Shown here: piece by piece, positions 2,840 to 27,835 of the stretch | Numbering within the stretch: position 1 is the stretch's first letter | How the letters are laid out: each line of letters begins with the position of its first letter | From: Haliangiales bacterium | GTDB taxonomy: Bacteria; Verrucomicrobiota; Verrucomicrobiia; Limisphaerales; AV2 | Direction of reading: 5' to 3' | Length of the DNA stretch: 41,315 nt | NCBI GenBank assembly: GCA_035637175.1 | Contig: DASPXS010000201.1 | Location: 1-41,315, forward strand | The notes under the pieces: model-generated | The model's database searches: none | Seen by the model: only the letters and a program-made list of their open reading frames with translations | What the model was told of the DNA's origin: nothing | Made by a program: the position numbers and the translations under genes

Positions 2840-2878
2840 TTACCCATTCGATCCAACGATACAGAACAAACGCCCGCG

Positions 2879-3709: not shown

Positions 3710-4060
3710 TGGAGGCGGCGGGAATTGAACCCGCGTCCCTGATAGATCAACCAGCCGCGACTACATGCTTAGTCAAGCGAGAGTTGTCAGCAGTGCGATA
3801 ATGGCCTGACGCAACTCGCACCGCTTAGTCCGCATGACATTTTCTCGGCTGCCGGCGCGCGGTCTCCGCCGTCAACCATGCCTGCTATGGCGTTCGTCCG
3901 GCGTAGCAGGTGTCCACCGGCGAACGTCGCAGCGCATTAGGCCGCGAGTGCTAGCTCTTCGTTAGCAGTTATTGTTTGGTCCGATGATTAACGAGGCCAA
4001 CGAACCATCCTCGGCATGCCGCCTCTGGCGTATCCCCCAGGTCGAAACCAGTACGCCCCC
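3710..4060 (-). ncRNA. ssrA: tmRNA (transfer-messenger RNA)
   Basis: The reverse complement starts GGGGGCGTACTGGTTTCGACCTGGGG and ends GGGTTCAATTCCCGCCGCCTCCA. The acceptor stem GGGGGCG/CGCCTCC contains the G3:U Ala-identity pair, and the terminal CCA is not encoded. The internal tag reading frame GCT AAC GAA GAG CTA GCA CTC GCG GCC TAA gives ANEELALAA* (plus-strand 3937-3966). Confidence 0.9.
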
Positions 4061-5903: not shown

Positions 5904-5932
5904 AGTTTCTGCTTCCTTCCTGTTGGTTACGA

Positions 5933-6226
5933 TTACTCCACTACCGCCAGAATGTCGTCGGAGTTCAGAATTTTGTACTCCTTGCCATCCAGCTTGATTT
6001 CAGTACCGCCGTATTTGCTGATCAGCACGCGGTCGCCTTTCTTGACTTCAAACGGCACCTTCTTGCCGTTGTCGTCCGTTTTACCGGTGCCCAGCGCCAC
6101 GACGAGTCCTTCGGTTGGTTTTTCCTTGGCGGTATCGGGAATGATGATGCCGCCTTTCTTGACTTCCTTCTCTTCGACCGGTTCAACCAGCACCCGGTCG
6201 CCGAGCGGTTTCAGATTAACTGCCAT
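5933..6226 (-). CDS. groES: co-chaperonin GroES
   Basis: The track ORF (to 6283) carries a 19-codon extension. I place the start at the ATG at 6224-6226, preceded by AAAGGAAG. The product [19 protein letters not shown]...[13 protein letters not shown] is canonical Cpn10 of ~97 aa. Confidence 0.93.
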
Positions 6227-6343
6227 ACGTTCGTCTTCCTTTTGTTGGTTTGATTGTTTCTTACGAATCAAATCCCGCAGCACTCACCGCGGGAAAATCA
6301 CTTGCCCCAGGGGCAGGCCGGAACTCAAAGATTGCCGGGCTCG

Positions 6344-8281: not shown

Positions 8282-8518
8282 AAAAACCTCGTTCTGATTG
8301 CGCTGACGTCTTCCTAAGCACCGGCGATGCCAGCGGCGTGAGTTTTGTCTTAACGGGTTGGGCAGGTGTAAATTGCAAACAAAATGCCCTCCAATGGCGG
8401 GCCGCAAAACCTGCGTCAAACGGGCCATCCTGTCGCAGCGTTTCCCGTATTGGCACGGCCTGTCATGGCACACTCCAGGCGTTGCCTGGCGCAGCCCATC
8501 GCTCCGTTGCCCCACCCC

Positions 8519-8548
8519 GGAGGGTGAGTTAAAGGAGGGTGAGTTAAA
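8519..8548. repeat. perfect 15-bp tandem duplication GGAGGGTGAGTTAAA x2
   Basis: Read directly. A near-identical inverted copy of the core (CTTGAACTCACC, the reverse complement of GGTGAGTTCAAG) lies at 8639-8650. All copies are in the dnaK / dehydrogenase divergent intergenic region. Confidence 0.8.
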
Positions 8549-8554
8549 GAATGG

Positions 8555-8621
8555 TAGCCGCCGACGTAAGGAGGCGGATTTTGGCACGAAAAACACTTCC
8601 GCCTCGTAACCTCGGCGGCTA
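8555..8621. repeat. long imperfect inverted repeat (REP-like)
   Basis: TAGCCGCCGACGTAAGGAGGCGG, then 21 nt, then CCGCCTCGTAACCTCGGCGGCTA. The outer stem is 10 bp and the inner stem is 7 bp. Confidence 0.65.
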
Positions 8622-12170: not shown

Positions 12171-13009
12171 AAACACTTATGCCCGGCGGAACGGAACGCC
12201 AACAAGTCCTGCGCTGGAAAGGCGGGTCGCATCCGTTGCGCCAAAGCGATGACCTGGCCACGGAAGAGCCGTTGGAAATCCGGGTGGACACGCGTCCGGT
12301 GAGCGTCACGATGCGGACGCCAGGTCACGACGAGGAACTCGCGGCCGGCTTTCTGTTCACCGAAGGTCTGGTCCGTCGTCGGGAACAGATCCTGGCAATC
12401 AAACGTCACCCGCGGAACGGGCAAAACAACGTGCTGGACGTTTTCCTTTCGCCGGAGGTTAAGGTGGATTTCGCCCGGCTCACGCGACACGTCTTTGCTT
12501 CGTCCAGTTGTGGGCTGTGCGGCAAGGCAACCATCGAAGCGGTCCATCAGCGCTTCAAACCGGTGCGCGCCAAACTGGCGGTGGAGCCTGAGACGCTGCT
12601 TCGGCTGCCGGAACGGATGCGCCAACAACAGGAGGCGTTCGAGCGCACCGGCGGACTTCACGCCGCGGCGGTGTTTGACTGCCGGGGCAACCTGCTCGTC
12701 TTACGCGAAGACGTGGGCCGCCACAATGCGGTGGACAAGGCCATCGGCTGCGGTTTGCTCCGGAACAAACTGCCGTTCGATCAGCACCTGCTTATGGTCA
12801 GCGGGCGGGCGTCGTTTGAAATCGTGCAGAAGGCGTTGGCGGCCCGTATTCCGATCGTCTGCGCGGTCTCGGCGCCATCGAGCCTGGCCGTGGCATTCGC
12901 CCGCGACAGCGGACAGACGCTGATTGGCTTCCTGCGCGGCGACTCGTTCAATGTTTATTCGCACCCGAAACAAATTGGTAAGTCGCCGGGTCGAAAACCC
13001 GCAAACTGA
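12167..13009 (+). CDS. fdhD: formate dehydrogenase accessory sulfurtransferase FdhD
   Basis: 280 aa. Contains EEPLEIRV, the catalytic-loop SSCGLCGK and GRHNAVDK. Its TTG start overlaps the stop of the upstream oxidoreductase gene. An internal ATG four codons downstream is an alternative start. Confidence 0.88.
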   Translation: MKTLMPGGTERQQVLRWKGGSHPLRQSDDLATEEPLEIRVDTRPVSVTMRTPGHDEELAAGFLFTEGLVRRREQILAIKRHPRNGQNNVLDVFLSPEVKVDFARLTRHVFASSSCGLCGKATIEAVHQRFKPVRAKLAVEPETLLRLPERMRQQQEAFERTGGLHAAAVFDCRGNLLVLREDVGRHNAVDKAIGCGLLRNKLPFDQHLLMVSGRASFEIVQKALAARIPIVCAVSAPSSLAVAFARDSGQTLIGFLRGDSFNVYSHPKQIGKSPGRKPAN

Positions 13010-14419: not shown

Positions 14420-16819
14420 ATGACCTCACCGGAAACTGAATTCATCAGCATTCTTGGCGTTCCCAGCGGCTCGGACACCGTGATCACCCGCTCGGGCGGC
14501 AAGTCGCTGCCGGAGGTTTTGCCCATCCTCGGCCTGTCCGATATTGTGATCTTTCCCGGCATGGTGGCGCCGTTGCTGGTGGACTCGGCGGCGAGCATCC
14601 GGCTGATCGACGACGTGGTGGCGGGCGACCGTTTCATCGGTCTGGTGCTGCAGAAAAAGGCGGACGTGGAAAATCCCACTCCGGTTGACCTGTGGAACCA
14701 GGGCTGCGCGGTGCGCGTGTTGAAGATGTTGAAATTTCCGGACAACACCGTGCGGGTGCTGGTCGAAGGCTTGCGCCGATTCCGCATCGCGCATTATGAA
14801 TCACACGAGCCGTACCTGCGCGCAAAGATCGAAGTCATCCGCGACGTGGTCGAACCCTCGCTGGAACTGACGGCGATGACGCGCAACGCGCAGCGGCAAT
14901 TTCAGGAAATCATCGATCTGTCGCCCGCGATGTCCGACGAAGTGAAAGTCGCCGCCCTCAATACCGAGCACCCGGGCAAGCTGGCCGACCTCATCGCCGC
15001 CAACCTGAATCTGAGTCTGGAGGAGCGGCAGCAATTACTCGAAATGAACCTGGTCAGGGAACGGCTCTCCCGCTTGCTGCCGCTGCTGAGCCGCGAGTTG
15101 GAGGTCCTGACCCTCGGTTCGAAAATCCAGAAGGAAGTCGCTTCCTCGATGAGCAAGAGCCAGCGCGACTTCTTCCTGCGCGAACAAATCCGCGCGATCC
15201 AGCGCGAACTCGGGGAGTCGGATCCGGCGACCGGCGAGATCAATGCCCTCCGGGAACAGATCGAGAACGACCACCTTCCCGAAGAGACGAAAAGAATCGC
15301 CTTGAAGGAGCTGGAACGATTGCAACAAATACCGCCGACGACACCCGAATACACCGTCTCACGCAATTATCTCGATTGGATCGTCAACCTGCCCTGGTCG
15401 AAAGGGACGGAGGACAAAATTGACCTGGGCGCCGCCGCCCGCATTCTCGACGAGCAGCACTACGGCCTGAGCAAAGTGAAGGACCGTCTCCTGGAGTTTC
15501 TGGCCGTCATCAAGCTGAAGAACCGATTGAAAGGCCCGATCCTCTGTCTGGTCGGCCCGCCGGGCGTCGGCAAGACCTCCCTCGGCCGGAGCGTGGCCGA
15601 CGCGCTGGGGCGGAAGTTTGCGCGCATTTCGCTGGGCGGCATGCGTGACGAGGCGGAGATTCGCGGCCACCGACGCACTTATGTGGGCGCGTTGCCGGGA
15701 CGGATCATCCAGAGCCTGCGGCGGGTGGAGAGCAACAACCCGGTCATTTTGCTCGATGAAATTGACAAGGTCGGCTCGGATTTTCGCGGCGATCCGGCGG
15801 CCGCATTGCTTGAAGTCCTCGATCCGCAGCAGAACTATACTTTCACCGACAACTACCTCGACATGGCTTTTGACCTGTCGCATGTCCTGTTCATCACCAC
15901 CGCCAATTGGCTCGACCCGATTCATCCCGCGTTGCGCGACCGGCTGGAAGTGATCGAACTGCCCAGCTACACGGCCACCGAGAAATTGCAGATCGCCAAA
16001 CGGTATCTGGTGCCACGCCAGTTGGACGAGCACGGACTCAAAGGGAAACTGGTCAGATTGCCTGACGCGACCCTCAAACGCCTGATCCTGGACTACACCC
16101 GTGAAGCCGGGGTGAGACAGTTGGAACGCGAGATCGCCGCACTGACCCGCAAAGCGGCGCGCAAGATCGTCAGCCGCCACGGCTTGCTTCGTCCTTTGAC
16201 GATCAGCGCGGGCGAGTTGGCGGACTACCTCGGCCCGGCGAGATTTGAGACGGAGATGGCCGAGGTGATCACGGAATCCGGCGTCGCCACCGGGCTGGCC
16301 TGGACACCGGTGGGCGGCGATATCCTGTTTATCGAGGCCACCCGCATGCCAGGCAGCGGTAAATTGATGCTGACCGGTTCCCTCGGCGAAGTAATGAAGG
16401 AAAGCGCACACACGGCGCTGACCTATTTGCGCAGCCAGTCCACGGCGTTGAAACTGGATTTTACCGAGTTCGACAAGCAGGACATTCACATCCACGTGCC
16501 TGCCGGCGCCACGCCCAAGGACGGTCCCAGCGCCGGCGTCACGATCGTCGCGGCGCTGGCGTCATTGCTTTCGCAGCGACCGGTCCGTTCCGATGTGGCC
16601 ATGACGGGCGAAATCAGTTTGCGCGGCCGCGTGCTGCCCGTCGGCGGCGTCAAGGAAAAGGTGCTCGCCGCCAATCGCGCCGGCCTTAAGCACGTCATCC
16701 TGCCCGAACAGAACCGCAAGGACTGGGTCGATGTCCCGGCGGAAGTCCGCCAGAAGATCAAGGCGCATTTCGTTCGTCAGATTTCCCAGGTCTTGCCGCT
16801 GGCCTTGCGCCCCAAATGA
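14420..16819 (+). CDS. lon: ATP-dependent Lon protease (LonA)
   Basis: 799 aa. Has an N-terminal LON substrate-binding domain. Walker A is GPPGVGKTSLGRS, Walker B is ILLDEIDK, and the protease catalytic Ser lies in PKDGPSAGVT. Confidence 0.97.
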   Translation: MTSPETEFISILGVPSGSDTVITRSGGKSLPEVLPILGLSDIVIFPGMVAPLLVDSAASIRLIDDVVAGDRFIGLVLQKKADVENPTPVDLWNQGCAVRVLKMLKFPDNTVRVLVEGLRRFRIAHYESHEPYLRAKIEVIRDVVEPSLELTAMTRNAQRQFQEIIDLSPAMSDEVKVAALNTEHPGKLADLIAANLNLSLEERQQLLEMNLVRERLSRLLPLLSRELEVLTLGSKIQKEVASSMSKSQRDFFLREQIRAIQRELGESDPATGEINALREQIENDHLPEETKRIALKELERLQQIPPTTPEYTVSRNYLDWIVNLPWSKGTEDKIDLGAAARILDEQHYGLSKVKDRLLEFLAVIKLKNRLKGPILCLVGPPGVGKTSLGRSVADALGRKFARISLGGMRDEAEIRGHRRTYVGALPGRIIQSLRRVESNNPVILLDEIDKVGSDFRGDPAAALLEVLDPQQNYTFTDNYLDMAFDLSHVLFITTANWLDPIHPALRDRLEVIELPSYTATEKLQIAKRYLVPRQLDEHGLKGKLVRLPDATLKRLILDYTREAGVRQLEREIAALTRKAARKIVSRHGLLRPLTISAGELADYLGPARFETEMAEVITESGVATGLAWTPVGGDILFIEATRMPGSGKLMLTGSLGEVMKESAHTALTYLRSQSTALKLDFTEFDKQDIHIHVPAGATPKDGPSAGVTIVAALASLLSQRPVRSDVAMTGEISLRGRVLPVGGVKEKVLAANRAGLKHVILPEQNRKDWVDVPAEVRQKIKAHFVRQISQVLPLALRPK

Positions 16820-17586
16820 CCGTTCGGCCGATACTCTTTGTCTTCGCGTTTCTGGGAACTCACCTGCCGCAGGCCGCGGGCAACCCTCGTCCCGCGTCCA
16901 ACGCCCAAGGCCAGGCGCTGGCGGCGGAACTCCGACTGGCGCGACCCACGGAGAACCTGGAAGTCAAGGGCCTGTTGAAGATTCGCGATGCCGACGGCAA
17001 ACGCAGCAAGGTTCCTTTTCACTACCGTTTTATCAACGGCGAAAAGGGCTGGGAAAACATTTACGAAACCGAAGCCGGCGGCCAGGCCCCGTCGGAAAGA
17101 CTGGTCGTATTACATCAGGAAGATCGACCGAATCGTTACCTGCATTCCCGGCCGGGCAACACCCATAACCCGCCGGCGGATGCGGCCCCGCTCAGCGGCG
17201 ACAAAGCGATGATTCCCTTCGCCAAATCAGATTTTTGGCTGGCTGACCTTGGCCTGGAGTTTCTGCATTGGCCGGAACAACGCCTCGTCGAAGACGCCAG
17301 AATTAAAATGCGCAAGGGCCGCCCGTGCAAAGTGCTGGAAAGCATCAACCCGCGGCCCGACGCGGCCGGCTATACGCGCGTTCGTTCCTGGATTGACGCG
17401 GAGAAGAGGCAACCCATCCTCGCCGAGGCCTACGGTCCGGACAACAAGCTGATCAAAGAGTTCGAAATCGGGAGCGTGACGAAAGTGAACGGTCAGTGGG
17501 AACTGAAGAACATGGAAATGCGCAACACCAGAGCGGATTCGCAGACTGTTCTCGAGTTCAAGTACGACCAAAAAGCTGCGGAGTAG
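16816..17586 (+). CDS. outer-membrane lipoprotein-sorting (LolA-like) family protein
   Basis: 256 aa with a signal peptide (ILFVFAFLGTHLPQAAG). F.KSDFWLADLG and a C-terminal ...VNGQWELKNMEMRN... resemble the LolA_like family. Its ATG overlaps the lon stop (ATGA). Confidence 0.55.
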   Translation: MTVRPILFVFAFLGTHLPQAAGNPRPASNAQGQALAAELRLARPTENLEVKGLLKIRDADGKRSKVPFHYRFINGEKGWENIYETEAGGQAPSERLVVLHQEDRPNRYLHSRPGNTHNPPADAAPLSGDKAMIPFAKSDFWLADLGLEFLHWPEQRLVEDARIKMRKGRPCKVLESINPRPDAAGYTRVRSWIDAEKRQPILAEAYGPDNKLIKEFEIGSVTKVNGQWELKNMEMRNTRADSQTVLEFKYDQKAAE

Positions 17587-17685: not shown

Positions 17686-17741
17686 CCTCCCCTTCCCTCT
17701 TCCCGGCGTGACTTTTGCGCCAAAGTCTTGTCCAATCGGCG

Positions 17742-18389
17742 ATGGCAACTTTTGTGTCAATGGCCGAGCCTGCACAAACCGGATCCTCATCTGTTTCTGA
17801 GGAGGCGAACCGCGCCAAGGCGGACGCCGCGGCAACGACCGCCCCGGGCGGGCCTTTTTCCATCGGCGATCGACCGAAGTGGGCCGTGCCCGAATTCGGC
17901 GCGATTTACGAGGAGCACTCCCGCCCGGTTTATTACCTCGCGCTGCGTTTTCTCGGCGATCCCGCACAAGCCGAGGACGCGACTCACGACGTCTTCTTGA
18001 AGGCCTATCGCAAACTCGGTGAATTTCGCGGTGACTCGGCAATGCGCACCTGGCTTTACCGCATCACGATCAATCACTGCAAAAATCTTTTGCAGACCTG
18101 GCACCATCGGCACATGGTCAACAACGCCGACGAGAGCCTCTGGGAAAGCGCCCCGGCCAGCGCGGAGAATCCCTTGCGGGTGCTGGAAATCAAGGAACTC
18201 GGCCAACGCATCCAGAAAACTCTCGATGTTCTGCCGGAAGAATACCGGCTTTTACTGCTGCTGGTCGCGGATCAACAGATGAGCTACAACGAAATCGCCG
18301 CGTTGACCGGGCAGAGCCCGGACGCCGTTCGCGGCAAATTGCACCGCGCCCGCAAGGCTTTCATCGCCCAGTTCCAGAAATCTGCCTGA
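17742..18389 (+). CDS. ECF-type RNA polymerase sigma-70 factor
   Basis: Region 2 reads YYLALRFLGDPAQAEDATHDVFLKAYRKLGEFRGDSAMRTWLYRITINHCKN. Region 4 reads LPEEYRLLLLLVADQQMSYNEIAALTGQSPDAVRGKLHRARKAF. The start is uncertain: TTG 17715, ATG 17742 or ATG 17760. Confidence 0.88.
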   Translation: MATFVSMAEPAQTGSSSVSEEANRAKADAAATTAPGGPFSIGDRPKWAVPEFGAIYEEHSRPVYYLALRFLGDPAQAEDATHDVFLKAYRKLGEFRGDSAMRTWLYRITINHCKNLLQTWHHRHMVNNADESLWESAPASAENPLRVLEIKELGQRIQKTLDVLPEEYRLLLLLVADQQMSYNEIAALTGQSPDAVRGKLHRARKAFIAQFQKSA

Positions 18390-18393
18390 ACCT

Positions 18394-18627
18394 ATGAACC
18401 CGAACACCTCGAAACTGCGACAGAAACAGGAAACCACGGAGCAAATCGCCTCGCAGCAGACCGCCCGTGAATTTGCCTCCCCGGAAGAGATGCTTCGCCA
18501 CGACGCCGGACAAATCAGCCCCCCGCCCGGCCTGGCCCATCGCGTGGCGGAGTCGATCGCGAAAGAACCGAGACCCGCGCGCTCGTGGTGGCAGCGATGG
18601 TTCTCGCGCCGTTCCACCAATCCATGA
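18394..18627 (+). CDS. small hypothetical protein downstream of the ECF sigma (possible anti-sigma or partner, no TM helix)
   Basis: 77 aa. It starts 4 nt after the sigma stop, and its stop overlaps the next ATG (ATGA), which argues that it is translated. I recognise no motif in it. Confidence 0.45.
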   Translation: MNPNTSKLRQKQETTEQIASQQTAREFASPEEMLRHDAGQISPPPGLAHRVAESIAKEPRPARSWWQRWFSRRSTNP

Positions 18628-19493
18628 CTTGCGTCGAACACGCCGTATCGCGGCCGCGACTGCCAAACCGGTCGGAGCGGGCCCGCTCGCGCATCGAGAC
18701 CGCGCGCCTCGCGCTGGCGGAATGCCGTTTATGCGCGCATCACTGCGGCGTGAATCGGCTCGCAGGCGAACGCGGGCTTTGCCGTGCCGGCGCCGGAACC
18801 CGCCTTTTCCAGGCGCAAGCCGAGGTGTCGGATGAACTCGAACTTGTTCCCACGTTCGCCATCGCGTTGAGCGGATGCGATCTGCGCTGCGCTTTCTGCA
18901 TTACCGGCGCGGAGAGTTGGAATCCCCGCGCCGGCGAACCCGTCGATCCTTTTGCCCTCGCGATGAAGGCGCAGGCGGCGCTGGACGACGGCGCGCGCAC
19001 GGTAATGATTCTGGGCGGTGAACCGACCATTCACCTTCCGACCGTGTTGGAAATCGTCGCCGGGTTGCCGGACAACGCGAAACTGGTCTGGAAAACCAAT
19101 GCGCACGGTTCGGTTCAGGCGCGCGAACTGCTGGACGGACTGTTCGATGTCTGGCTGGCGGACTATAAATTCGGCAACGACAGTTGTGCCGAACGGTTGG
19201 CGCGAGTTTCGGACTACACGCGCGTTGTTCAGGAGAATCTGCTTTGGGCCAACGAACACAGCGAACTCATCGTCCGGCATCTGGTCATGCCGGGCCATGT
19301 GGATTGTTGTTGGGCGCCGGTCGCGCGTTGGTTGGCGGAGAACCTGCCCGGTGTGAAAGTCAACTTGCGCACCGGCTTTTGGCCGGCATGGCAAGTGGCG
19401 CGTCATACTGAATTGCGTGGCACCGTTTCGACGACCGAAGCCAATCGCGCGTGGCGGATCGCCTGCGAACGAGACCTGCACTTGATAGAATGA
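18624..19493 (+). CDS. radical SAM protein, PflX-like (pyruvate formate-lyase activase-related)
   Basis: Start moved to the ATG at 18624 (MTCVEH). The N-terminal C.LC..HCGVNR..GE.G.C motif is typical of COG1313/PflX. The radical SAM cluster is CDLRCAFC (CxxxCxxC). Confidence 0.75.
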   Translation: MTCVEHAVSRPRLPNRSERARSRIETARLALAECRLCAHHCGVNRLAGERGLCRAGAGTRLFQAQAEVSDELELVPTFAIALSGCDLRCAFCITGAESWNPRAGEPVDPFALAMKAQAALDDGARTVMILGGEPTIHLPTVLEIVAGLPDNAKLVWKTNAHGSVQARELLDGLFDVWLADYKFGNDSCAERLARVSDYTRVVQENLLWANEHSELIVRHLVMPGHVDCCWAPVARWLAENLPGVKVNLRTGFWPAWQVARHTELRGTVSTTEANRAWRIACERDLHLIE

Positions 19494-19652: not shown

Positions 19653-19874
19653 ATGCCTATGGCCGAAGAATGCAATTCACTCTCTGCCGATTCAGCAGGA
19701 CCTGGTTCGACAAGTGAATTATTGATTCTGCCCGATGGGAGAATTCTTGTCCACAATTTAACTCCTTTGTTCGCCGCGCTGTTAAGCGACCTGAATCCTG
19801 CCGACGAACAGATTCGGTCCCGGGCAAATCGCGATCCGGAGCGCAACGACCGGCAACGAACCACCGAACACTGA
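19653..19874 (+). CDS. small hypothetical protein preceding the AAA+ gene
   Basis: 73 aa. It ends 7 nt before the AAA+ ATG. It has a plausible folded core ([28 protein letters not shown]) and a charged tail. Local GC is lower. No recognised motif. Confidence 0.35.
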
Positions 19875-19881
19875 CCCGGCC

Positions 19882-21435
19882 ATGAACTTTGCGCTTGAAC
19901 TGGAAACATTGATTCGCGCCCGTTATCCGATCCTCTATGTCGTCTCGGCGGAAGAGGCGCGGGTGCAGCAGTTGGTCGTCGGCATCGCGCAACGGCGGCA
20001 GAAAAAAGTGTTCGAGTGGAGCTTCAGCACGGGCATCGTTCCCGCCGGCACGTCGATTCAATCCCAGAAGCACCGCAATGCGCCCACCAAAGATCCGCTG
20101 ATCGCGTTGGACCAGGTGATCGATCAGGTGGACCCCGCCATTTTCATCTTCAAAGATTTCCATCCCTTTCTGACCAGGAACAATTTTGCCGTCATTCGCA
20201 AGCTCAAGGAGATCGCGCTGCACCTCAAGAACAGCATTAAGACGATCGTTCTGGTCTCGCCGGTGCTGGAAATCCCCCCCGAACTGGACAAGGAAATCAC
20301 GATGCTGAACTTCCCGCTTCCGATCCGCGAGGACCTGGCGGCGTTGCTCGACAGGATTGTTGAAGACGTGAAGCAATTCAAACAGGTGAAAATCGATCTG
20401 GACGAAGCGGGACGTGAACGGCTGTTGCAGGCCGCGCTCGGGCTGACGCTGGGAGAGGCGGAAAACGTCTTCGCCAAGATCATCGTCAAAGACGAACGGC
20501 TGACCGGCGAAGACGTGAACGAGGTTTTTGCGGAGAAACAGCAGATCATTCGCAAGAGCGGGCTGCTCGAGTACTACGCGACCGATGAAACATTCTCGAA
20601 CGTTGGCGGGTTGGCCGTTCTGAAGGAGTGGCTGCAGAAACGGGCGGTGGCGTTCACCGACGAAGCGCGCGCGTTCGGTCTGCCCCCGCCGAAGGGCATC
20701 CTGATGCTGGGCGTCCAGGGTTGCGGAAAGAGTTTGTGCGCCAAGGCCGTCTCCTCTCTCTGGCAACTCCCCCTGCTGCGCTTCGACATGGGCCGGATGT
20801 TCGGCAGCCTGGTCGGCTCATCGGAGGAAAATGTTCGCCGCGCCATCGCGGTGGCGGAATCGGTCGCGCCCGCGATCCTCTGGGTGGACGAAATCGACAA
20901 GGCGTTTGCCGGATCGCAGGGTTCGGGCGCGACGGACGGGGGGACGACCGCGCGCGTGTTCGGAACTTTTCTGACCTGGCTTTCCGAGAAGATCGCGCCG
21001 GTGTTCGTAGTCGCCACCGCCAACGACATTTCCCAGCTTCCGCCCGAGCTGATGCGCAAGGGGCGGCTGGACGAGATATTCTTCGTGGACCTGCCCTCGG
21101 AGGGCGAGCGCCAGGAAATCTTCCGCATTCACCTGGCGCGACGGGGTCGCGACCCGCAGCTCTTCGACATCGAAACTTTGGCGGCGTGCGGCGAAAACTT
21201 CAGCGGCGCGGAGATCGAGCAGGCCGTGATCAGCGCGCTTTACGACGCGTTTTACGCCAAGGTGGAACTGAACACCCAGCACATCCTCGAAGCGTTGCGC
21301 CAGACGGTGCCCCTGGCCAAGACCATGGATGAACAGATCAATCGGCTGCGCAATTGGGCTGAAGGACGGGCGCGCAATGCCAGCACGACCCGGGTGCCCG
21401 GCGCGGACGACCAGGTTCGGCGAATGGAGTTTTGA
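19882..21435 (+). CDS. Ycf46-like AAA+ ATPase
   Basis: 517 aa. The N-terminus [28 protein letters not shown] resembles Ycf46 proteins. The single classic AAA module has Walker A GVQGCGKS, Walker [10 protein letters not shown], and SRH/Arg finger [25 protein letters not shown]. Confidence 0.8.
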
Positions 21436-21603
21436 GACGTGCCAACGTCGGGCGTGACCGTTTTGGCTTCGCCTCCCTGGCCGGCCTCCCTTTCAATCCC
21501 TGGCCTGCCGAACGATTTTTCAAATTCCGCGTGAGGGGACGCCGGGTGCCCGGTCCAACCATTTGAATCGGTCATCCCAATCGCACGACGATCAAATGAT
21601 ATT

Positions 21604-22077
21604 ATGAGCTGCGTATGCATCCTTACACCGGTGGTGATCGCTGCCTGGCCGGCATTCAGCGCCGCGGTCGTGTCGGCGGCGGCTTCGCTGGGCTACGCAG
21701 TGGTTGAAGAGGCGAAAAAGGCAGCCGAATCCGCGGGCAAATCCCCACTGGTCAATCGAGTGGATCTGCAGGTGCCGCACAGCCAACTGGTCATGGACAC
21801 GCTCAATCGCGACCAGCGCATCTCGGTCACCCGCGACGGCGTGACCGTGACCTTCGCCCGCGACCCGCGCGGCAAAGCGTCCCTCTGCGTGACCGGCGAA
21901 GGCCACACGGAGGCCGAACTGAGGGCACTCGGTGAAGAGCTGAGTCAACGTCTGGTGCAGAAATACGTTTACCAGCGGTTGAAGGAGGAGATGCGCTTGC
22001 GCCAGTTCGTGGTCGTGGAAGAGGAAACCGACCAGAACCAGGCGATCCGCCTCAAAGTGCGTCACTGGGAGAACTGA
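21604..22077 (+). CDS. hypothetical protein with a hydrophobic N-terminus; the C-terminal part is possibly DUF1257/Ycf35-like
   Basis: 157 aa. The N-terminus is MSCVCILTPVVIAAWPAFSAAVVSAAASLGYAV. The C-terminal LVQKYVYQRLKEEMRLRQFVVVEEETDQNQAIRLKVRHWE recalls the Ycf35 C-terminal pattern; this is from memory and not verified. Confidence 0.5.
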   Translation: MSCVCILTPVVIAAWPAFSAAVVSAAASLGYAVVEEAKKAAESAGKSPLVNRVDLQVPHSQLVMDTLNRDQRISVTRDGVTVTFARDPRGKASLCVTGEGHTEAELRALGEELSQRLVQKYVYQRLKEEMRLRQFVVVEEETDQNQAIRLKVRHWEN

Positions 22078-22080
22078 GCC

Positions 22081-22281
22081 ATGCGACAACGCGAATTTGA
22101 AATCACCATCGGGCCGGACGGTTCGGTTGAAGTGCACGTGAAAGGCTACAAAGGCAAACGCTGTCTCGAAGCGGTGAAGTTCTTCGAACAAATCGTCGGA
22201 GAGACCCGGTCACAGCAGTTGACCAGCGAATACTATGATCCGGAAGAGGAAGTGCAGTATCACATCGAACAGCGGAGTTGA
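22081..22281 (+). CDS. DUF2997-like small protein
   Basis: 66 aa. EFEITIGPDGSVEVHVKGYKGKRCLEAVKFFEQIVGE....QLTSEYY fits the DUF2997 pattern (E..I..DG.V...V.G..G..C...T..LE..LG.......T.EYY). It starts 3 nt after the upstream stop. Confidence 0.6.
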   Translation: MRQREFEITIGPDGSVEVHVKGYKGKRCLEAVKFFEQIVGETRSQQLTSEYYDPEEEVQYHIEQRS

Positions 22282-22317
22282 AGTTCTGTCCGGGCGAATC
22301 AACCTTCCAGGTGAGTG

Positions 22318-23199
22318 ATGGCGGGGACGAATAACATGCCCAAGGCATTTTATCCACCGCGCGCCCGATGGTACAGTCCAATCTTTTATTTTTGGTACTG
22401 GCTTCGGCGGCGTCTTCTTTTGGATCGGATCAAACTGCCCTCGGCGGTCAACCTCGTGCGAGTTTTGTTGGGCTTGATGTTGCCGGGATACGCGTTTGCG
22501 GCTTGCGGACGGCCAACCATAGCCCGCGTTGTTTATGGCGGTTATGCGCTGGCCGCGTGCACATTCATCGTCTGGCTGGGGTATGTCATTTCGAGCCTGG
22601 CGCTGGCCGCGATGGTCTCGCTTCATGTCGTCGGCGTGCTCTATCTGGTCGGACGCCATTCGCCCGAGTTGAACGGCCGCTGGCGGATGGTTTTGTCAGT
22701 GACGACTTTTTTGCTGGTCTATTTTTGCTTTTACAGCCCGCTCCGGAGACAATTTGAGGAGCGGCTGGCAATGCCGTTAAGAGTGGGCGACAAGGTCGTC
22801 ATGGTCAGTAGCCGAAAGGACGCCGGGACAGTCAGGCGAGGAGATTGGGTGGCCTACCGAATCGTCCCAATCCGGGAGGGAAATGCCTTCCTGGCCGGGG
22901 GATTAGGATTTGGCCGGGTGCAGGCTGTTGCGGGCGACGAGGTTGTTTTTACGCCGAAGAGTCTTCAGATCAACGGGGCGCTGTTCCCGCGGCGGAGGTA
23001 TATGCCGGTCAATCAAACATGGGTAGTGCCGGAAAAGCACTGGTTTATTTGGCCGGATTCGACTATATCTATCTCAGGAAACCAAGAACAGGGCGATGCC
23101 GTGGCCCGACTGATGTGCGGGCTTTCCCTGGTCGCGGAACCACAGTACGTGGGCCAACCGCTGCGCCGGTGGTTTTGGCGACGCCAGACAATGCCATGA
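22318..23199 (+). CDS. polytopic membrane protein with a C-terminal S26 signal-peptidase-like domain lacking the Ser/Lys dyad
   Basis: About 4-5 TM helices are followed by an S26-like layout: LAMPLRVGDKVVMV / RRGDWVAY / GRVQAVAGDEVVF..LQINGA / VVPEKHWFIWPD / VGQPLRRWFW. The start is ATG 22318 or GTG 22315. Confidence 0.6.
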   Translation: MAGTNNMPKAFYPPRARWYSPIFYFWYWLRRRLLLDRIKLPSAVNLVRVLLGLMLPGYAFAACGRPTIARVVYGGYALAACTFIVWLGYVISSLALAAMVSLHVVGVLYLVGRHSPELNGRWRMVLSVTTFLLVYFCFYSPLRRQFEERLAMPLRVGDKVVMVSSRKDAGTVRRGDWVAYRIVPIREGNAFLAGGLGFGRVQAVAGDEVVFTPKSLQINGALFPRRRYMPVNQTWVVPEKHWFIWPDSTISISGNQEQGDAVARLMCGLSLVAEPQYVGQPLRRWFWRRQTMP

Positions 23200-23987
23200 G
23201 TCGTTTCAACAATCTGGAGTTCAGCGAGGAGTTTGACGGAGAATTGCAACACCGGCAAACCGACCAATCCACGCCGGCGGTCAAAGATGAGGCGTACTAT
23301 CTTGAACAGGCGCAGGCGGCGTTCGAGTGCGGCCAGTTCGAAGAAGCCCTGCGGCACTACGCCAAGGTCCTCGAGTTCAATCCGACCAATACCGCCGCCT
23401 GGACCGGCCAGGTGCGAATGCTGATCGAGTTGAATGAATTTCAGGAGGCCAAACAATGGTCGGACAAGGCGCTCCAACGTTTCCCCAATGATCCGGAACT
23501 GCTGGCGGCCAAAGCCGTCGCCCTGGCGCGTCTCGGCGATTTGAAAGCGGCGCTCGCCTACTCGGATGCTTCGCTGGAGGAACGGGGCGAAACACCCTAC
23601 ATCTGGCTGGCGCGGGGCGACGTGCAACTGGCGCGGGAGGAGAAGCGGGCGGATTACTGCTTTGAAAGGGCCTTGACCCTGGCGCCGCGCGATTGGTTCG
23701 TTCGTTGGTTGGCCGCGCGGGTCCACTATTACTACAAGAAATTCGCATTCGCGGTGAAACTGCTGCAAGAGGCACTCGAGTTGAAATCCGGCCAGGGCGT
23801 GCTGTGGTTGCAACTCGGTTTCTGTCAACAGGCCCTGGGGTTGGTGAAACCGGCCAGGGTCTCGTTCCAAAATGCGCGCGAATTCAGCCCGCACAGCCGG
23901 GAAGCCGACACGGCCTTGAGGAAGCTTTACCAGGTCGGGTTCTGGGAAAAGGTCCGCGGCCGCTGGCGCCAATTCTTTAACCAATGA
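23196..23987 (+). CDS. TPR repeat protein
   Basis: Start placed at the ATG at 23196 (MSRFNNLEF), overlapping the upstream stop (ATGA). The track ORF from 22845 overlaps the previous gene. It has several 34-aa TPR units, for example AYYLEQAQAAFECGQFEEALRHYAKVLEFNPTN. Confidence 0.8.
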   Translation: MSRFNNLEFSEEFDGELQHRQTDQSTPAVKDEAYYLEQAQAAFECGQFEEALRHYAKVLEFNPTNTAAWTGQVRMLIELNEFQEAKQWSDKALQRFPNDPELLAAKAVALARLGDLKAALAYSDASLEERGETPYIWLARGDVQLAREEKRADYCFERALTLAPRDWFVRWLAARVHYYYKKFAFAVKLLQEALELKSGQGVLWLQLGFCQQALGLVKPARVSFQNAREFSPHSREADTALRKLYQVGFWEKVRGRWRQFFNQ

Positions 23988-25051
23988 ACGCGTCGTGGTT
24001 GGACCGGTTGCTTGAGGCGGCGAACGAGTTTGGCGCTTCCGACCTCCATTTGATTGCCGGCGTGCCGCCGGCCTACCGGGTCAACGGCGAAATCATCCTT
24101 GCGGACGAAGATGCCTTGAAGCCGGAAATCATCACGGCCATGGCGGACGGGCTGCTCAACGGGATTCAGCGCGAAAAATTTGATCGCGAATGGGAACTCT
24201 GTATTTCACTCCTCCACCCGACGGCCGGCCGGGTGCGCGTGACTTTTTATCGACGGAACGGCCACCCGGAAATGAGCTTCCGCCTTTGCGGCGACCGCAT
24301 CCCCGGCCGCGAAGAACTGGGGCTCCCGGCGAAGATCGACGAACTGGCGCGCCGACCAAACGGTTTGATTCTCATTACCGGACCGACCGGGGCCGGCAAA
24401 ACGACGACGCTCAACTACATGGTGGAAGTCATCAATTCAGAGCGCCGGTGCAAGATCATCACGATCGAGGACCCGATCGAATTTGTGCATGAGAACAAGC
24501 GCGCCATCGTCGTTCAGCAGGAAGTTCTGACGGACACACAATCGTTCAACCGGGCATTGGTGCACGTATTGCGACAGGACCCGGACGTGATTGTGGTGGG
24601 TGAAGTGCGCGATCACGAGGCCATGGCCACCGCGCTGAAGGCGGCCGAAACGGGGCATTTGGTGATTGCGACGCTGCATTCGCCCAACGTCGCGCTGGCG
24701 CTGGAGAGGATTATCGGAGTGTTCGAGGGGAGCGCGCAGCGGCAGATTGTGCTGCAACTGGCCAATGCGTTGCAGGGGATCATCGCCCAGGAACTGCTCC
24801 CGGCGGTGGATCGTTCGCGGCGCGTGCTCGCTTACGAGCTGCTCATCGCCAACAGCGCTGTGCGCAACCTGATTCGCGAAAACAACCTGCATCAATTGGA
24901 AAACTGCATCCAGACCGGCGCCAGAGACGGCATGGTGCTGATGGACAACTGTCTTTACGAACTCTACTGTCGCTGCCAAATCAGCTACGACACCGCCCTG
25001 AGCCGCGCGCGTAACCCGGACCGGATCGCCAAAAGGGCCAACCAAACCTGA
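23984..25051 (+). CDS. pilT: PilT-family (type IV pilus retraction-type) hexameric ATPase
   Basis: 355 aa. Contains ASDLHL, Walker A GPTGAGKTTT, IITIEDPIEFVH, the Asp box DPDVIVVGEVRD, the His box TGHLVIATLHS, and AVRNLIRE. Its ATG overlaps the TPR gene stop (ATGA). Confidence 0.88.
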   Translation: MNASWLDRLLEAANEFGASDLHLIAGVPPAYRVNGEIILADEDALKPEIITAMADGLLNGIQREKFDREWELCISLLHPTAGRVRVTFYRRNGHPEMSFRLCGDRIPGREELGLPAKIDELARRPNGLILITGPTGAGKTTTLNYMVEVINSERRCKIITIEDPIEFVHENKRAIVVQQEVLTDTQSFNRALVHVLRQDPDVIVVGEVRDHEAMATALKAAETGHLVIATLHSPNVALALERIIGVFEGSAQRQIVLQLANALQGIIAQELLPAVDRSRRVLAYELLIANSAVRNLIRENNLHQLENCIQTGARDGMVLMDNCLYELYCRCQISYDTALSRARNPDRIAKRANQT

Positions 25052-25100
25052 TGCCGGGTCGCCCGGCGGGGCGGCCGCCAAAACCCCGGCGACGCAATTC

Positions 25101-26327
25101 ATGAACTGGCTTTCGCCAAAACTGTCCGGCGTGCTCGAAGCGGTTTTGTGCGCCGGCATCATCGGTTGGATTTTGTACCGGTGGTTGAAGAAGAGCGATG
25201 ATCCGGCGCGGCTGATTTCGAAGTGGGCCATCACCGCGGTGATGGGCGGCATCACCGGCTGGGTCGCCATTTCGAATTATCAGGAGGGAGGCAGCTATGG
25301 CGCCGCATTCATCATTGGGATTACCTGCGCCATCTGCGGAATCGTCCTGGGCATTACCTGGGGCGGCAATATCGCGGACTTCCTTGGCAGACCATTGACC
25401 AGCTTGTTCGACGGCGGCGATCAGGAGATGCCTCCGACGCCGTTCTACTCCATCGCTGAAGCCAGGCGGAAACGGGGGAACTACCCCGAGGCAGTCGCCG
25501 AAATACGCAAACAATTGGAGCGTTTCCCGGGTGATTTCACCGGGATGCTGATGCTCGCGGAGGTCCAAGCAGAGGACCTGAACGATTTTGCCGGCGCACA
25601 GGAGGCGATCGAGCGTCTGCTGATCGAGTCCGAGCGAAATCCTGCGAACATGGCGCTGGCGTTGAACCGCCTGGCGGATTGGCACCTGAAATTCGGGCGG
25701 GACCCGGATTCTGCGCGAGCGACGCTGGAACGCGTTCTGGAGATGTTTCCAGAAACGGAACAGGCCTACCTGGCGAGCCAGCGCATCGCCCATCTTGCCA
25801 CGGGAGAAATGCTGGCGGAAAAGCACGAACCGCATCGCATCAAGCTGGGACAGTACCAGGAGAACATCGGGTTGCTGCGAGAACCGGCGAAGGTGCGGGC
25901 ACCGGAAGAAGACCCGGCGACCGTCGCCGGAGACCTGGTCAGGCACCTGGCGCAACATCCGCAGGACGGTGAGGCCAGAGAGAGGCTGGCGTTGATTTAC
26001 GCGGAGCACTATCAACGATTGGATCTGGCGGCGGACCAACTGGAGCAGTTGCTCGCGCAACCGAACCTGCCGGTCAAACCGGCCGTTCGCTGGCTCAATA
26101 TGCTCGCCGACCTCCACCTCAAACATGGCGGCGACCTGGCGGCGGCCAGGCTCGCGTTACAACGCGTGATTGATAACTTTCCAAATCTGGCGGCGGCGGA
26201 AAATGCGAAAAACCGGATGGCCCATCTGCAACTCGAACTGCGTTCGAAGAAAAAGAGCCAGGTGTTGAGCCTGGGCTCTTACGAAAAGAATATCGGGCCG
26301 GGCGGCGGACCGGGCGTCACTGACTGA
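25101..26327 (+). CDS. membrane-anchored TPR-like protein
   Basis: 408 aa. Three N-terminal TM helices (LEAVLCAGIIGWILY, WAITAVMGGITGWVAI, AAFIIGITCAICGIVLGITWG) are followed by a helical-repeat region (YSIAEARRKRGNYPEAVAEIRKQLERFPGD...). Confidence 0.7.
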   Translation: MNWLSPKLSGVLEAVLCAGIIGWILYRWLKKSDDPARLISKWAITAVMGGITGWVAISNYQEGGSYGAAFIIGITCAICGIVLGITWGGNIADFLGRPLTSLFDGGDQEMPPTPFYSIAEARRKRGNYPEAVAEIRKQLERFPGDFTGMLMLAEVQAEDLNDFAGAQEAIERLLIESERNPANMALALNRLADWHLKFGRDPDSARATLERVLEMFPETEQAYLASQRIAHLATGEMLAEKHEPHRIKLGQYQENIGLLREPAKVRAPEEDPATVAGDLVRHLAQHPQDGEARERLALIYAEHYQRLDLAADQLEQLLAQPNLPVKPAVRWLNMLADLHLKHGGDLAAARLALQRVIDNFPNLAAAENAKNRMAHLQLELRSKKKSQVLSLGSYEKNIGPGGGPGVTD

Positions 26328-26712
26328 CGAGCAATTGACCGTAGATTTGTTTGTCGATCTCGCTGGCGAGGTCGATGTCCGCGACTCCGCCTCGGCGCAC
26401 CTGCACCGTCACTTTGGTGATCTTCGGTTCGCTGTCATCCAGGGCGACGTACACTTTGGCGGTGTCGATCCTTGCCTCCAACACCTTCCTGACAAGATCG
26501 TCACCGACCAGGGTGCCGTTGCGTTTCAACACGGCGATGCTGGCTGTTTTCACCTGGTCGTAAGACTTTTCATAACGGCTGACGATCTTGTCCTTTCCGG
26601 GCAAGCCGAAGATCAGATCTTCCTTGGGCGTGGAAACGCAGCCGGCGCACACAAACCAGAGACAACCCAGCGCCAGCAATGTGAAAAATTTAAGTGTCAT
26701 GGGGTTATGCAA
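26317..26712 (-). CDS. small lipoprotein (DUF3568-like)
   Basis: The signal peptide has a lipobox (LWFVCAGC). The ~110-aa mature domain has a pattern resembling DUF3568 lipoproteins. It overlaps the convergent upstream gene end by 11 nt. Confidence 0.55.
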   Translation of the reverse strand: MHNPMTLKFFTLLALGCLWFVCAGCVSTPKEDLIFGLPGKDKIVSRYEKSYDQVKTASIAVLKRNGTLVGDDLVRKVLEARIDTAKVYVALDDSEPKITKVTVQVRRGGVADIDLASEIDKQIYGQLLVSQ

Positions 26713-27304: not shown

Positions 27305-27381
27305 GGGGGTGTAGCTCAATTGGTTAGAGCGCTGCCCTGTCACGGCAGAGGTTACGGGTTCGAGCCCCGCCACTCCCGCCA
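27305..27381 (+). tRNA. tRNA-Asp (anticodon GTC)
   Basis: Cloverleaf read by hand. The acceptor is GGGGGTG/CACTCCC and the D arm is GCTC-AATTGGTTA-GAGC. The anticodon stem CTGCC/GGCAG carries the loop CTGTCAC. The T loop is TTCGAGC, the discriminator is G, and the CCA is encoded. Confidence 0.9.
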
Positions 27382-27383
27382 CG
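27366..27383 (+). repeat. att-like direct repeat, copy 1 (3' end of tRNA-Asp)
   Basis: CCCGCCACTCCCGCCACG. An identical 18-mer lies at 28267-28284, and both copies are followed by a TTTT run. Confidence 0.8.
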
Positions 27384-27409
27384 CTTTTGTGGGCTTTTTG
27401 AGAGGCTTG

Positions 27410-27835
27410 ATGGCTTGCTTAAGCAGACGGGTTCTGGCAGATTTGGATCAGCTTATGGGCACGGCAGCCATTCCGTTCGAGTCAGAGGATTCCGCACAGA
27501 GCTTGTGGGAGCGATTTTTTGCTGACTTCCCCGCCTCCGTCGAGGAATGGAGCCGCTCCATCAATCGCTGGAACCGATGGGAGGAAGAACACCTGTTGGT
27601 TGAACGGCCCTCGCCCGAAGACCTCGCACGCCATCTGAAGTTCATCAAACGGCTGATGTTCTTCGGCCAGCTATGCGCTCTGGTCGCCACGCATCCCGAC
27701 TACGGGGATGTCCAAACTGCGGAGATGGTCACTGCCTCACAGGAAGTTCTGCGCAACAAACTTCGCATGTTCCATCAACCAATGGGCGACGAAGAAGCCG
27801 GAAAAATTTTAGCGGAGGTTTTCCCTGCATCCTGA
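27410..27835 (+). CDS. hypothetical protein inside the tRNA-flanked segment
   Basis: 141 aa from the first ATG after the tRNA (MACLSRRVLADLDQL...). The track ORF start at 27320 lies inside the tRNA. GC is lower than in the surroundings. No recognisable motif. Confidence 0.45.
   Translation: MACLSRRVLADLDQLMGTAAIPFESEDSAQSLWERFFADFPASVEEWSRSINRWNRWEEEHLLVERPSPEDLARHLKFIKRLMFFGQLCALVATHPDYGDVQTAEMVTASQEVLRNKLRMFHQPMGDEEAGKILAEVFPAS

Follow-up and report, generated by a model that had tools for sequence, protein, structure and literature searches.

A conserved gene cluster of Verrucomicrobiota that places DUF1257 and DUF2997 proteins, a PilT-family ATPase and a dead signal-peptidase homologue beside a classic-clade AAA+ ATPase, apparently under one ECF sigma factor

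Why should the genes for a pilus-retraction type motor (PilT) and for a Cdc48-like AAA+ ATPase stand on one strand, joined by genes that overlap or nearly touch? The question is raised by a stretch of 41,315 nucleotides (nt) from contig DASPXS010000201.1, here called the window; for this genome, the analysis covers those 41 kb. A sequence-only reading made beforehand had singled out eight open reading frames (ORFs) at 19653–26327 as one cluster. All eight are present at the positions it gave, all on the + strand, and the intergenic gaps are as it listed them: 7, 168, 3, 33 (36 if counted from the second Met) and 49 nt. The two ATGA stop/start overlaps that it listed, at 23196–23199 and 23984–23987, can be read directly in the sequence, and the strand switch at 26317 marks a convergent minus-strand ORF (26317–26712) that overlaps the last gene. 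Searches with hidden Markov models and structures confirmed or strengthened its domain assignments (AAA+, DUF2997, PilT, two tetratricopeptide repeat (TPR) proteins and a dead S26 signal peptidase). Its outline of the unit did not hold. The left boundary at 19653 is arbitrary, because the genes upstream lie on the same strand too, and the unit begins about 2 kb further left, with an extracytoplasmic function (ECF) sigma factor, a 77-amino-acid (aa) protein and a radical S-adenosylmethionine (SAM) enzyme. Its division into an AAA/DUF1257/DUF2997 half and an S26/TPR/PilT/TPR half is also misplaced, as a conserved promoter falls instead between the AAA and DUF1257 genes. The features of the unit are as follows.

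17707–17735, +: promoter motif of the sigma gene, P(sigma), CGTGAC-N17-GTCCAA; the first of two exact matches in the whole window
17742–18389, +: ECF sigma-70 family sigma factor (Sigma70_r2 E 1.2e-16, r4_2 E 3.6e-12)
18394–18627, +: sm1, a conserved 77-aa soluble protein with conserved motifs, following the sigma gene
18624–19493, +: radical SAM enzyme (PF04055, 40.5 bits against a cut-off of 29.5; Fer4_12 match)
19653–19874, +: sm2, a 73-aa protein found in 51/61 loci, with no family match in Pfam/NCBIfam searches
19882–21435, +: classic-clade AAA+ ATPase, 517 aa (PF00004, E 6.9e-26)
21530–21558, +: promoter motif of the DUF1257 gene, P(DUF1257), CGTGAG-N17-GTCCAA; the second exact match in the window, within the 168-nt gap
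21604–22077, +: putatively membrane-anchored DUF1257 (Ycf35-type) protein, 157 aa (PF06868, assigned via family members)
22081–22281, +: DUF2997 protein, 66 aa (PF11211, 63.9 bits against a cut-off of 24.1)
22315–23199, +: polytopic membrane protein with a dead S26 domain (pseudo-S26), 294 aa (AlphaFold2 model and Foldseek)
23196–23987, +: soluble TPR protein without signal peptide, 263 aa (TPR families, E down to 5e-17)
23984–25051, +: PilT-family hexameric ATPase, 355 aa (TIGR01420)
25101–26327, +: membrane-anchored TPR protein, 408 aa (TPR_16, TPR_6 and TPR_14, E about 1e-12 to 1e-14)
26317–26712, −: small lipoprotein gene, convergent (lipobox-like GC after the signal sequence; 40/78 loci)

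We infer that the unit consists of two operons, the first comprising the genes for the sigma factor, sm1, the radical SAM enzyme, sm2 and the AAA+ ATPase, and the second those for the transmembrane (TM) DUF1257 protein, DUF2997, pseudo-S26, the soluble TPR protein and PilT, plus, in the window, the membrane TPR protein. Each single domain is known; in the literature searched, nothing was found on their combination, on how it is regulated or on a DUF1257 variant anchored in the membrane. No published account of the cluster was found, in keeping with its presentation as a new system, and no names for the window's proteins were found in public sources. Taken together, we are confident that the cluster is a real, co-regulated and undescribed multi-protein unit.

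The pseudo-S26 protein served as the marker for retrieving 78 loci, one per species-level genome, and, as this single gene was used for selection, all locus counts are conditional on its presence; denominators for gene presence comprise only loci with enough flanking sequence. Nearly all loci are labelled Verrucomicrobiota or Limisphaerales, and the few odd labels are probably binning or labelling errors. In homologue searches, the best 120–150 matches likewise all came from the window's own lineage. Gene order is kept across the 78 species-level genomes, which is more than chance. The genes of operon 2 occur in the same order in almost every locus (DUF2997 72/73, DUF1257 67/68, TPR 73/73, PilT 67/67), and this operon is the invariant core of the unit. 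Those of operon 1 are somewhat less constant (AAA+ 53/61, sm2 51/61, radical SAM 49/58, sigma 47/53, sm1 44/57). The co-occurrence of the AAA+ and PilT modules in other genomes, on which the sequence-only reading had staked itself in advance, was thus found in 53 of 61 loci. In the other eight, the block DUF1257–DUF2997–pseudo-S26–TPR–PilT has no operon 1 within 10 kb and unrelated genes upstream; since the block stands alone in these species, DUF1257 and DUF2997 group with PilT rather than with the AAA+ ATPase.

Genes within both operons are translationally coupled. The 4-nt overlap between pseudo-S26 and TPR is present in 73/79 loci and that between TPR and PilT in 64/76; in operon 1, the radical SAM gene overlaps sm2 by 4 nt in 32/53 loci, and sm2 overlaps the AAA gene, by any length, in 49/54. 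Identity between species is about 36% for pseudo-S26 and, counted over the best high-scoring segment pair (HSP), about 77% for PilT, 81% for AAA+, 72% for DUF2997 and 64% for DUF1257. Evolutionary rates within the operon thus differ sharply, pseudo-S26 being far more divergent than the other four.

Both operons are preceded by the same promoter motif. The bipartite sequence GCGTGAS-N17-GTCNAA was recognised upstream of DUF1257 and then also upstream of the sigma gene, and the window contains two exact matches where 0.49 would be expected by chance. A relaxed search of the window allowing 2 mismatches gave 4 matches against 6.1 expected and no further credible sites. When all loci and the window (1.29 Mb) were scanned on both strands with the pattern CGTGAS-N16-18-GTCNAH, 127 matches were obtained: 57 copies directly upstream of DUF1257 (56/72 loci), about 52 upstream of sigma (47/51 loci plus five missed by labelling, the window's included), 9 upstream of a membrane TPR gene relocated upstream of sigma, and about 8 elsewhere. 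All 114 assigned copies have a spacer of exactly 17 nt, although 16–18 nt were permitted. Five loci without a nearby operon 1 (L051, L064, L065, L072 and L078) retain the motif upstream of DUF1257. Consensus sigma-70 promoters and intrinsic terminators occur within the cluster at chance level only.

The sigma factor encoded behind the first copy matches TIGR02937 (96.4 bits, cut-off 42.9) and has regions 2 and 4 only. Its ORF opens at a TTG (17715), and the likely start is the ATG at 17742. A start codon (ATG or GTG) stands 5–6 nt past the −10 element of the sigma promoter in 44/48 loci, suggesting that the sigma mRNA is leaderless and that the TTG-initiated ORF overcalls the N-terminus. Autoregulated ECF sigma factors characteristically have a gene preceded by its own fixed-spacer promoter with a −10 element of the GTCnAA type. 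Such a promoter before sigma, with further copies before other genes, points to one ECF regulon made up of the two operons and the membrane TPR gene, and to judge from the sequence one dedicated ECF sigma factor appears to drive both operons.

The 168-nt gap that holds P(DUF1257) is occupied in some relatives by a gene. Between AAA and DUF1257, about 42 loci encode a two-TM protein of 103–108 aa, X103, which the window lacks. In 25/25 cases the P(DUF1257) motif is embedded in the 3′ end of X103, and in the window the motif is non-coding. The only strongly conserved peptide motif of X103, LSRDE..ARSKL, is encoded by the promoter DNA TCGCGTGACGAA...CCCGGTCAAAGCT (for example in L064, L066, L043 and L041); given the promoter beneath it, the conservation of this tail is probably at the DNA level. 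The X103 stop codon overlaps the DUF1257 start in 15/31 loci. A remnant of X103 in the window's gap was considered and rejected, as tblastn found none and the gap holds the promoter instead: the window has lost the X103 gene and kept the promoter.

The pseudo-S26 protein had been described as a dead signal peptidase, and both parts of that description are borne out. It combines a conserved motif, YYPPRARWY, at its presumably cytoplasmic N-terminus with 3–4 TM helices and a C-terminal S26 fold. The match to PF10502 is below threshold (14.8 bits against a cut-off of 22.9, E 0.028), and the fold is supported by predicted structure: an AlphaFold2 model from 66 homologues (mean predicted local distance difference test score, pLDDT, 87.9) consists of a helical membrane portion at the N-terminus and a beta domain at the C-terminus, and Foldseek searches with the beta domain returned SpsB (E 5.4e-5), SipA (4n31, E 1e-3) and Enterococcus EF3073 (E 8.5e-3). 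The catalytic Ser/Lys dyad is absent. No Ser or Lys is conserved at ≥90% among the 66 members of the family, and a profile alignment, itself weak, puts L151 (a Trp or Leu across the family) and G200 at the dyad positions. Charge counts favour, by the positive-inside rule, an N-in topology with three TM helices and a periplasmic S26-like domain. The family is large, with 1040 representatives at 50% clustering, at least 293 of them at E 1e-30 or better.

Two genes downstream, the ATPase matches the PilT/PilU model TIGR01420 over profile positions 2–342 of 343 (382.7 bits, cut-off 319.1) and aligns over its full length with Aquifex PilT (2gsz, E 6.7e-82). Aligned to 2gsz, it carries Walker A GPTGAGKTT, Walker B VIVVGEVRD, the His box TLHS and the AIRNLIRE-type motif SAVRNLIRE, and on these features it is a bona fide PilT family member. 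It had been called an orphan. This is true of the window, which contains no pilus genes, but not of all its relatives: of 54 genomes in which the downstream sequence is long enough, 16 have a gspF-H-I-J-K pseudopilin operon about 2–3 kb downstream of PilT. The order there is an opposite-strand lipoprotein gene, larE (a sacrificial sulfur transferase; 305 bits, cut-off 150), and genes for GspF-like, GspH-, GspI- and GspJ-like proteins and GspK. The GspF-like platform protein has GspF as its top match but falls below the cut-off (360.7 bits against 424), and GspK exceeds the NCBIfam cut-off (163 bits against 130). These larE–gspF-K loci include L009, L017, L020, L025, L028 and L029, at about +3 to +8.5 kb from the pseudo-S26 start. 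No GspE, GspD or GspG gene was found near them, and a second PilB/GspE-type ATPase occurs within 10 kb in one locus only.

The membrane-anchored TPR protein has three N-terminal TM segments followed by TPR repeats. Its assignment to the cluster, downstream of PilT, is right for the window and does not extend to the family, in which the gene is mobile, detected in 27/78 loci and sometimes upstream of sigma. Membership of the convergent lipoprotein gene in the unit is uncertain. It usually lies just downstream on the opposite strand and is weakly DUF3568-like in relatives; the window copy has no Pfam match and no promoter motif.

The DUF1257 protein of the window scores 17 bits with PF06868, below the cut-off of 22.2; all 24 aligned family members match the model (best E 6.9e-9), and close homologues are named "DUF1257 domain-containing protein" by NCBI. 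Its N-terminus, MSxVCILTPVVIAAWPAFSAAVVAAAxSLGY, is ≥90% conserved and hydrophobic over about 30 residues. An N-terminal "MSH" motif is reported for Ycf35 (PMC13060386); the proteins here begin MS(C/A)VCILTPVVIAAWPAF... and do not have it. The AlphaFold2 model is of moderate confidence (pLDDT 65), and a fold assignment was rejected because Foldseek found nothing in the PDB better than E 0.13. The DUF2997 protein has one invariant Cys and an acidic tail, TSEFYEPEE; DUF1257 also carries a conserved Cys.

That the AAA+/DUF1257/DUF2997 association recurs, as the sequence-only reading had stated, was seen also on three large IMG/VR contigs of 126, 192 and 40 kb, putatively from large phages. On each (L083, 4079–6361; L084, 2356–6189; L085, 5616–8130), a full-length AAA+ homologue (32–42% identity over residues 1–507) and a DUF2997 gene lie no more than about 2 kb apart, and L084 has a clear DUF1257 gene (E 8.4e-14) between the two. 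A search seeded with this viral DUF1257-like protein found only 2 proteins. No radical SAM gene lies within 6 kb of the viral-contig AAA/DUF2997 genes. In L083, another small ORF carries an "LPDGTVE" motif that recalls sm2. In cyanobacteria, DUF2997 is paired with ycf35 (PMC4284462), and the three-gene ycf46 operon, of unknown function, is among the most strongly stress-induced units of Synechocystis and Synechococcus (PMC7496141; 10.1101/2025.07.21.665879). Ycf35/DUF1257 and DUF2997 were still uncharacterised in 2026 (PMC13060386; 10.1101/2025.10.13.678797). We found no function for either family in the published literature, no published link of them to PilT, a pseudo-signal-peptidase or an ECF sigma factor, and nothing on this cluster in the literature on PilT and type IV pili in Verrucomicrobia.

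The AAA+ ATPase of operon 1 has a roughly 230-aa N-terminal domain, giving it a Ycf46-like architecture, and a weak AAA_lid_3 match at its C-terminal lid; its best PDB relatives are Cdc48/p97 D2 domains (E 2.7e-53). Its N-terminus may resemble those of Ycf46 proteins, for which Pfam and NCBIfam have no model. The gene is preceded by sm2, whose ORF as read in the window has no entry in the protein collection searched. Its substitutions relative to L005 fall 11/8/22 by codon position, and this third-position bias, with its presence across loci, marks sm2 as a real gene. In relatives, sm2 overlaps both the radical SAM and the AAA genes by at least 4 nt. The idea that sm2 is a DUF2997 paralogue was rejected, hhalign aligning 14 columns at a probability of 9%.

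The radical SAM ORF opens at a GTG (18585), and its likely start is the ATG at 18624, so that the sm1 stop overlaps it (ATGA at 18624–18627). The enzyme has an extra N-terminal Cys cluster, and its motifs CDLRCxFC and CRxCAHxC...C are conserved. Scores with NCBIfam equivalogs are all far below the cut-offs (PFLA 31.3 against 231.75; NrdG2 23.1 against 131), and PDB matches are confined to the core motif (SuiB E 0.008; PflA-AE E 0.058). It belongs to the Radical_SAM superfamily and may, very distantly, be PflA/NrdG-activase-like. Pfam and NCBIfam searches gave no family match for sm1, which is possibly a partner of the sigma factor or an anti-sigma factor. In 15 loci (L017, 5495–6184; L020, 5274–5963; L031, 5539–6330; and 12 others), sm1 and the radical SAM gene are separated by a rhomboid protease gene (PF01694), which is absent from the window, where the two flanking genes overlap by the ATGA.

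What such a unit might do can be proposed in outline, and we hold any specific mechanism with low confidence. Our preferred, and tentative, reading is a stress-inducible, membrane-anchored PilT/AAA+ assembly whose clients would be of type IV filament type or others in the membrane. The sigma factor, once activated by an envelope or stress cue, would induce itself and both operons. Three products of operon 2, pseudo-S26, TPR and PilT, would form a membrane complex, as the tight coupling of their three genes suggests a stoichiometric one. Because TPR domains bind short linear peptides, the YYPPRARWY motif of pseudo-S26 and the TSEFYEPEE tail of DUF2997 are candidate ligands, and the TPR protein might bridge the cytoplasmic N-terminal motif of pseudo-S26 to the PilT hexamer. 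Probably on the periplasmic side, the dead S26 domain could hold a signal-peptide-like or pilin-like segment uncut; by analogy with what has been proposed for SipA, it would be suited to gripping such an extended segment without cutting it. PilT would pull type IV filament-type subunits, for example gspF-K-type pseudopilins, into the membrane, and the membrane-tethered DUF1257/DUF2997 pair would pass clients to the AAA+ unfoldase for extraction. In sum, the PilT module would retract or dismantle a type IV filament and the unfoldase would clear its subunits or other membrane clients. The AAA+ ATPase, DUF2997, the TPR protein, PilT, the DUF1257 domain and the TPR domain of the membrane TPR protein are predicted to be cytoplasmic or at the cytoplasmic face, and the pseudo-S26 domain and the lipoprotein are likely periplasmic. 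As the only established activity of PilT is the retraction of filament subunits and the only filament genes nearby are gspF-K, retraction is the most economical model.

Several observations weigh against this assembly. Genes for a pilin, PilC/GspF, PilB/GspE or a secretin are missing from the 41 kb of the window, as is any prepilin motif. The gspF-K loci of relatives fall mainly in one clade of the PilT tree, plus two smaller groups, and the opposite-strand lipoprotein gene and larE that stand between PilT and gspF-K suggest that the arrangement is perhaps inherited synteny rather than a functional link. The topology of pseudo-S26 is ambiguous, a three-TM arrangement with a periplasmic domain appearing to fit better than four TM helices with a cytoplasmic one. 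The DUF1257 model is of moderate confidence and without a fold relative, and the pairing of sigma factor and promoter is drawn from their position and form. The model leaves the roles of the radical SAM enzyme, sm1, sm2 and X103 unexplained. We know of no case in which a PilT motor and an AAA+ unfoldase have common clients, and the model gives no reason why they should.

The same evidence can be read in other ways. The simplest is that two unrelated units, a Ycf46-type stress operon and the lineage's ordinary pilT locus with its accessory genes, are neighbours by inherited synteny. An internal promoter does divide them, operon 2 lacks operon 1 within 10 kb in 8/61 loci, the PilT is canonical in sequence, and pilT genes are commonly unlinked to other pilus genes. 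Yet the units are adjacent in 53/61 species; one 17-nt-spaced motif precedes sigma, DUF1257 and the relocated membrane TPR gene and is almost absent elsewhere in the 1.29 Mb; DUF1257 and DUF2997, partners of the AAA+ ATPase in other lineages, are encoded here in the PilT operon; and X103, where present, runs into the DUF1257 start. The common promoter and the placement of DUF1257/DUF2997 in the PilT operon weaken this explanation, which we regard as unlikely. A pilus-independent machine for membrane-protein extraction or quality control, resembling endoplasmic-reticulum-associated degradation (ERAD), would account for more of the surroundings: the dead peptidase would be the receptor, as are the Derlin pseudoproteases, a Cdc48-like AAA+ ATPase and a co-opted PilT would supply force, and the sigma factor would answer to envelope stress. 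The AAA+ ATPase is closest to Cdc48/p97 D2 domains, the candidate receptor is a pseudo-protease, a rhomboid protease gene is inserted in operon 1 in 15 loci, genes for Lon and a LolA-like protein directly precede the unit in the window, as they do in some relatives, the regulon contains no pilins, and in cyanobacteria ycf46 lies in a general stress operon (PMC7496141). This analogy rests on domain identities, and it requires a non-canonical role for a PilT that scores above a curated cut-off and, at about 77% best-HSP identity across species, is conserved in the manner typical of genuine retraction ATPases. To our knowledge, no true PilT has a role outside filaments, nor does a type II secretion system (T2SS) use one. 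We consider the extraction machine possible but doubtful.

Maturation of a product by the radical SAM enzyme, which would modify sm2 or the invariant Cys of DUF2997 before the ATPases unfold or export it, is suggested by the coupling of radical SAM to sm2 and of sm2 to AAA, by the enzyme's very distant likeness to the protein-activating PflA/NrdG type, and by the conserved Cys in both DUF2997 and DUF1257. It is nonetheless improbable: the enzyme has no SPASM or RiPP-recognition (ribosomally synthesised and post-translationally modified peptide) domain and no equivalog match, sm2 shows 60% conservation over what looks like a structured core and not a leader/core organisation, hhalign separates sm2 from DUF2997, and the AAA/DUF1257/DUF2997 triad occurs on viral contigs without a radical SAM gene within 6 kb. 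Those viral AAA/DUF2997 pairs, and weak IetA/IteA matches of the AAA+ ATPase (PADLOC E 3.8e-21; NCBIfam 67.8 bits), could instead point to anti-phage defence. The IteA score stands against a cut-off of 510 and reflects the generic AAA core only, the PADLOC defence-system libraries gave only generic AAA matches for the cluster, with no other component matched and no IetS-like partner protease found, and vertical inheritance across the whole order, a stable housekeeping neighbourhood and dedicated sigma control all speak against defence, making it very improbable indeed.

A bolder form of the proposal joins the two motors outright. The PilT motor and the Cdc48-like AAA+ ATPase, linked by DUF1257/DUF2997 and a pseudo-S26 receptor, would be an unrecognised inner-membrane machine. 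It would respond to an ECF-sigma signal by dislocating proteins of the membrane or envelope, as a bacterial equivalent of extraction systems that pair a pseudoprotease with an AAA ATPase. We think this rather unlikely. If it were true, DUF1257 and DUF2997 would be general adaptors of hexameric ATPases, and cyanobacterial and plastid ycf46/ycf35 would gain a first mechanistic role. Conservation of Ycf46, Ycf35 (DUF1257) and DUF2997 extends from cyanobacteria to the plastids of algae, with no known mechanism, and the present cluster would place DUF1257/DUF2997 at the membrane. Their company, PilT and a dead signal peptidase under a well-defined promoter, yields testable hypotheses of interaction and regulation. 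The cluster also adds a large family of pseudo-signal-peptidases and a possible new mode of PilT docking or regulation; its host lineage is abundant in soils, peat and lakes, so that the system is widespread in nature, though absent from model organisms.

Several features of the window outside the cluster were noted, and the flanking ORFs of all loci were clustered. An Rfam scan of the window found one tmRNA and one tRNA only, both outside the cluster: the tmRNA gene at 3707–4060 (−; RF00023, 170.8 bits) and the tRNA gene at 27305–27378 (+; RF00005, 65.1 bits). The start of the ORF at 27320–27835 is doubtful because it overlaps the tRNA gene. At 1502–3556 (+), a homologue of the SBP56 selenium-binding protein (E 3.2e-45) is followed directly by a SCO1/SenC copper chaperone, a pairing that we take to resemble methanethiol-oxidase loci. 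The neighbourhood is rich in proteostasis genes, with GroEL and DnaK at 4263–8596 (−). At 9873–13009 (+), a molybdopterin oxidoreductase gene (formate-dehydrogenase-like) overlaps a gene of the FdhD/NarQ family. A Lon protease gene is translationally coupled to that of a LolA-like protein at 14420–17586 (+), immediately upstream of the sigma promoter; among the 78 related loci, Lon is upstream in 6 and a LolA-like gene is present in 14, in several of them about 10 kb downstream on the opposite strand.

Set against known systems, the cluster is familiar in its parts. Like autoregulated ECF sigma regulons, it has a bipartite fixed-spacer promoter before the sigma gene, a second copy before the target operon and a small gene after sigma. 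It differs from them in that the sigma mRNA appears leaderless and the 77-aa partner has neither a recognisable anti-sigma domain nor a TM segment. The −10 element presumably resembles those of RpoE-type, GTCnAA-like promoters, while the −35 element is GCGTGAC here and GGAAC there. PilT shares with type IVa PilT (Aquifex 2GSZ, Geobacter 6OJX) the Walker A and B motifs, the Asp and His boxes and the AIRNLIRE-type motif. Unlike theirs, its gene is coupled in translation to those of a TPR protein and of a pseudo-signal-peptidase membrane protein and lies in a DUF1257/DUF2997 operon under an ECF-type promoter, with no pilB, pilC, pilQ or pilin gene within 41 kb. The T2SS platform and minor pseudopilins (GspF, H, I, J and K) are encoded near the cluster's PilT in relatives only, and are absent from the window.

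The nearest parallel to pseudo-S26 is SipA/LepA of Streptococcus pyogenes (4n31), likewise an S26 fold without the Ser/Lys dyad that is linked to a filament system. SipA is an inactive signal-peptidase homologue needed for pilus polymerisation; it is the closest solved structure after SpsB (24% identity by Foldseek, template modelling score 0.55 on the target) and the best profile-to-sequence match in the PDB (E 0.0045). It serves sortase-assembled Gram-positive pili and has a single anchor, whereas the protein here has 3–4 TM helices and a cytoplasmic N-terminal motif and is coupled to PilT; we claim no orthology between the two.

For the unit as a whole, a close known counterpart is the cyanobacterial and plastid ycf46 operon (slr0373-slr0374-slr0376; Synpcc7942_0416-0418), in which a classic AAA+ gene with a long N-domain also lies near DUF1257 and DUF2997 genes, presumably slr0373 and slr0376. 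Function is unknown in both, and the cyanobacterial operon is stress-inducible (PMC7496141; 10.1101/2025.07.21.665879). In the cluster described here, DUF1257 has gained a nearly invariant N-terminal membrane helix in place of the "MSH" of Ycf35, DUF1257 and DUF2997 are encoded apart from the AAA+ ATPase, in the operon of pseudo-S26, TPR and PilT, the AAA+ gene is coupled to those of a radical SAM enzyme and the 73-aa sm2, and control would lie with a dedicated ECF sigma factor.

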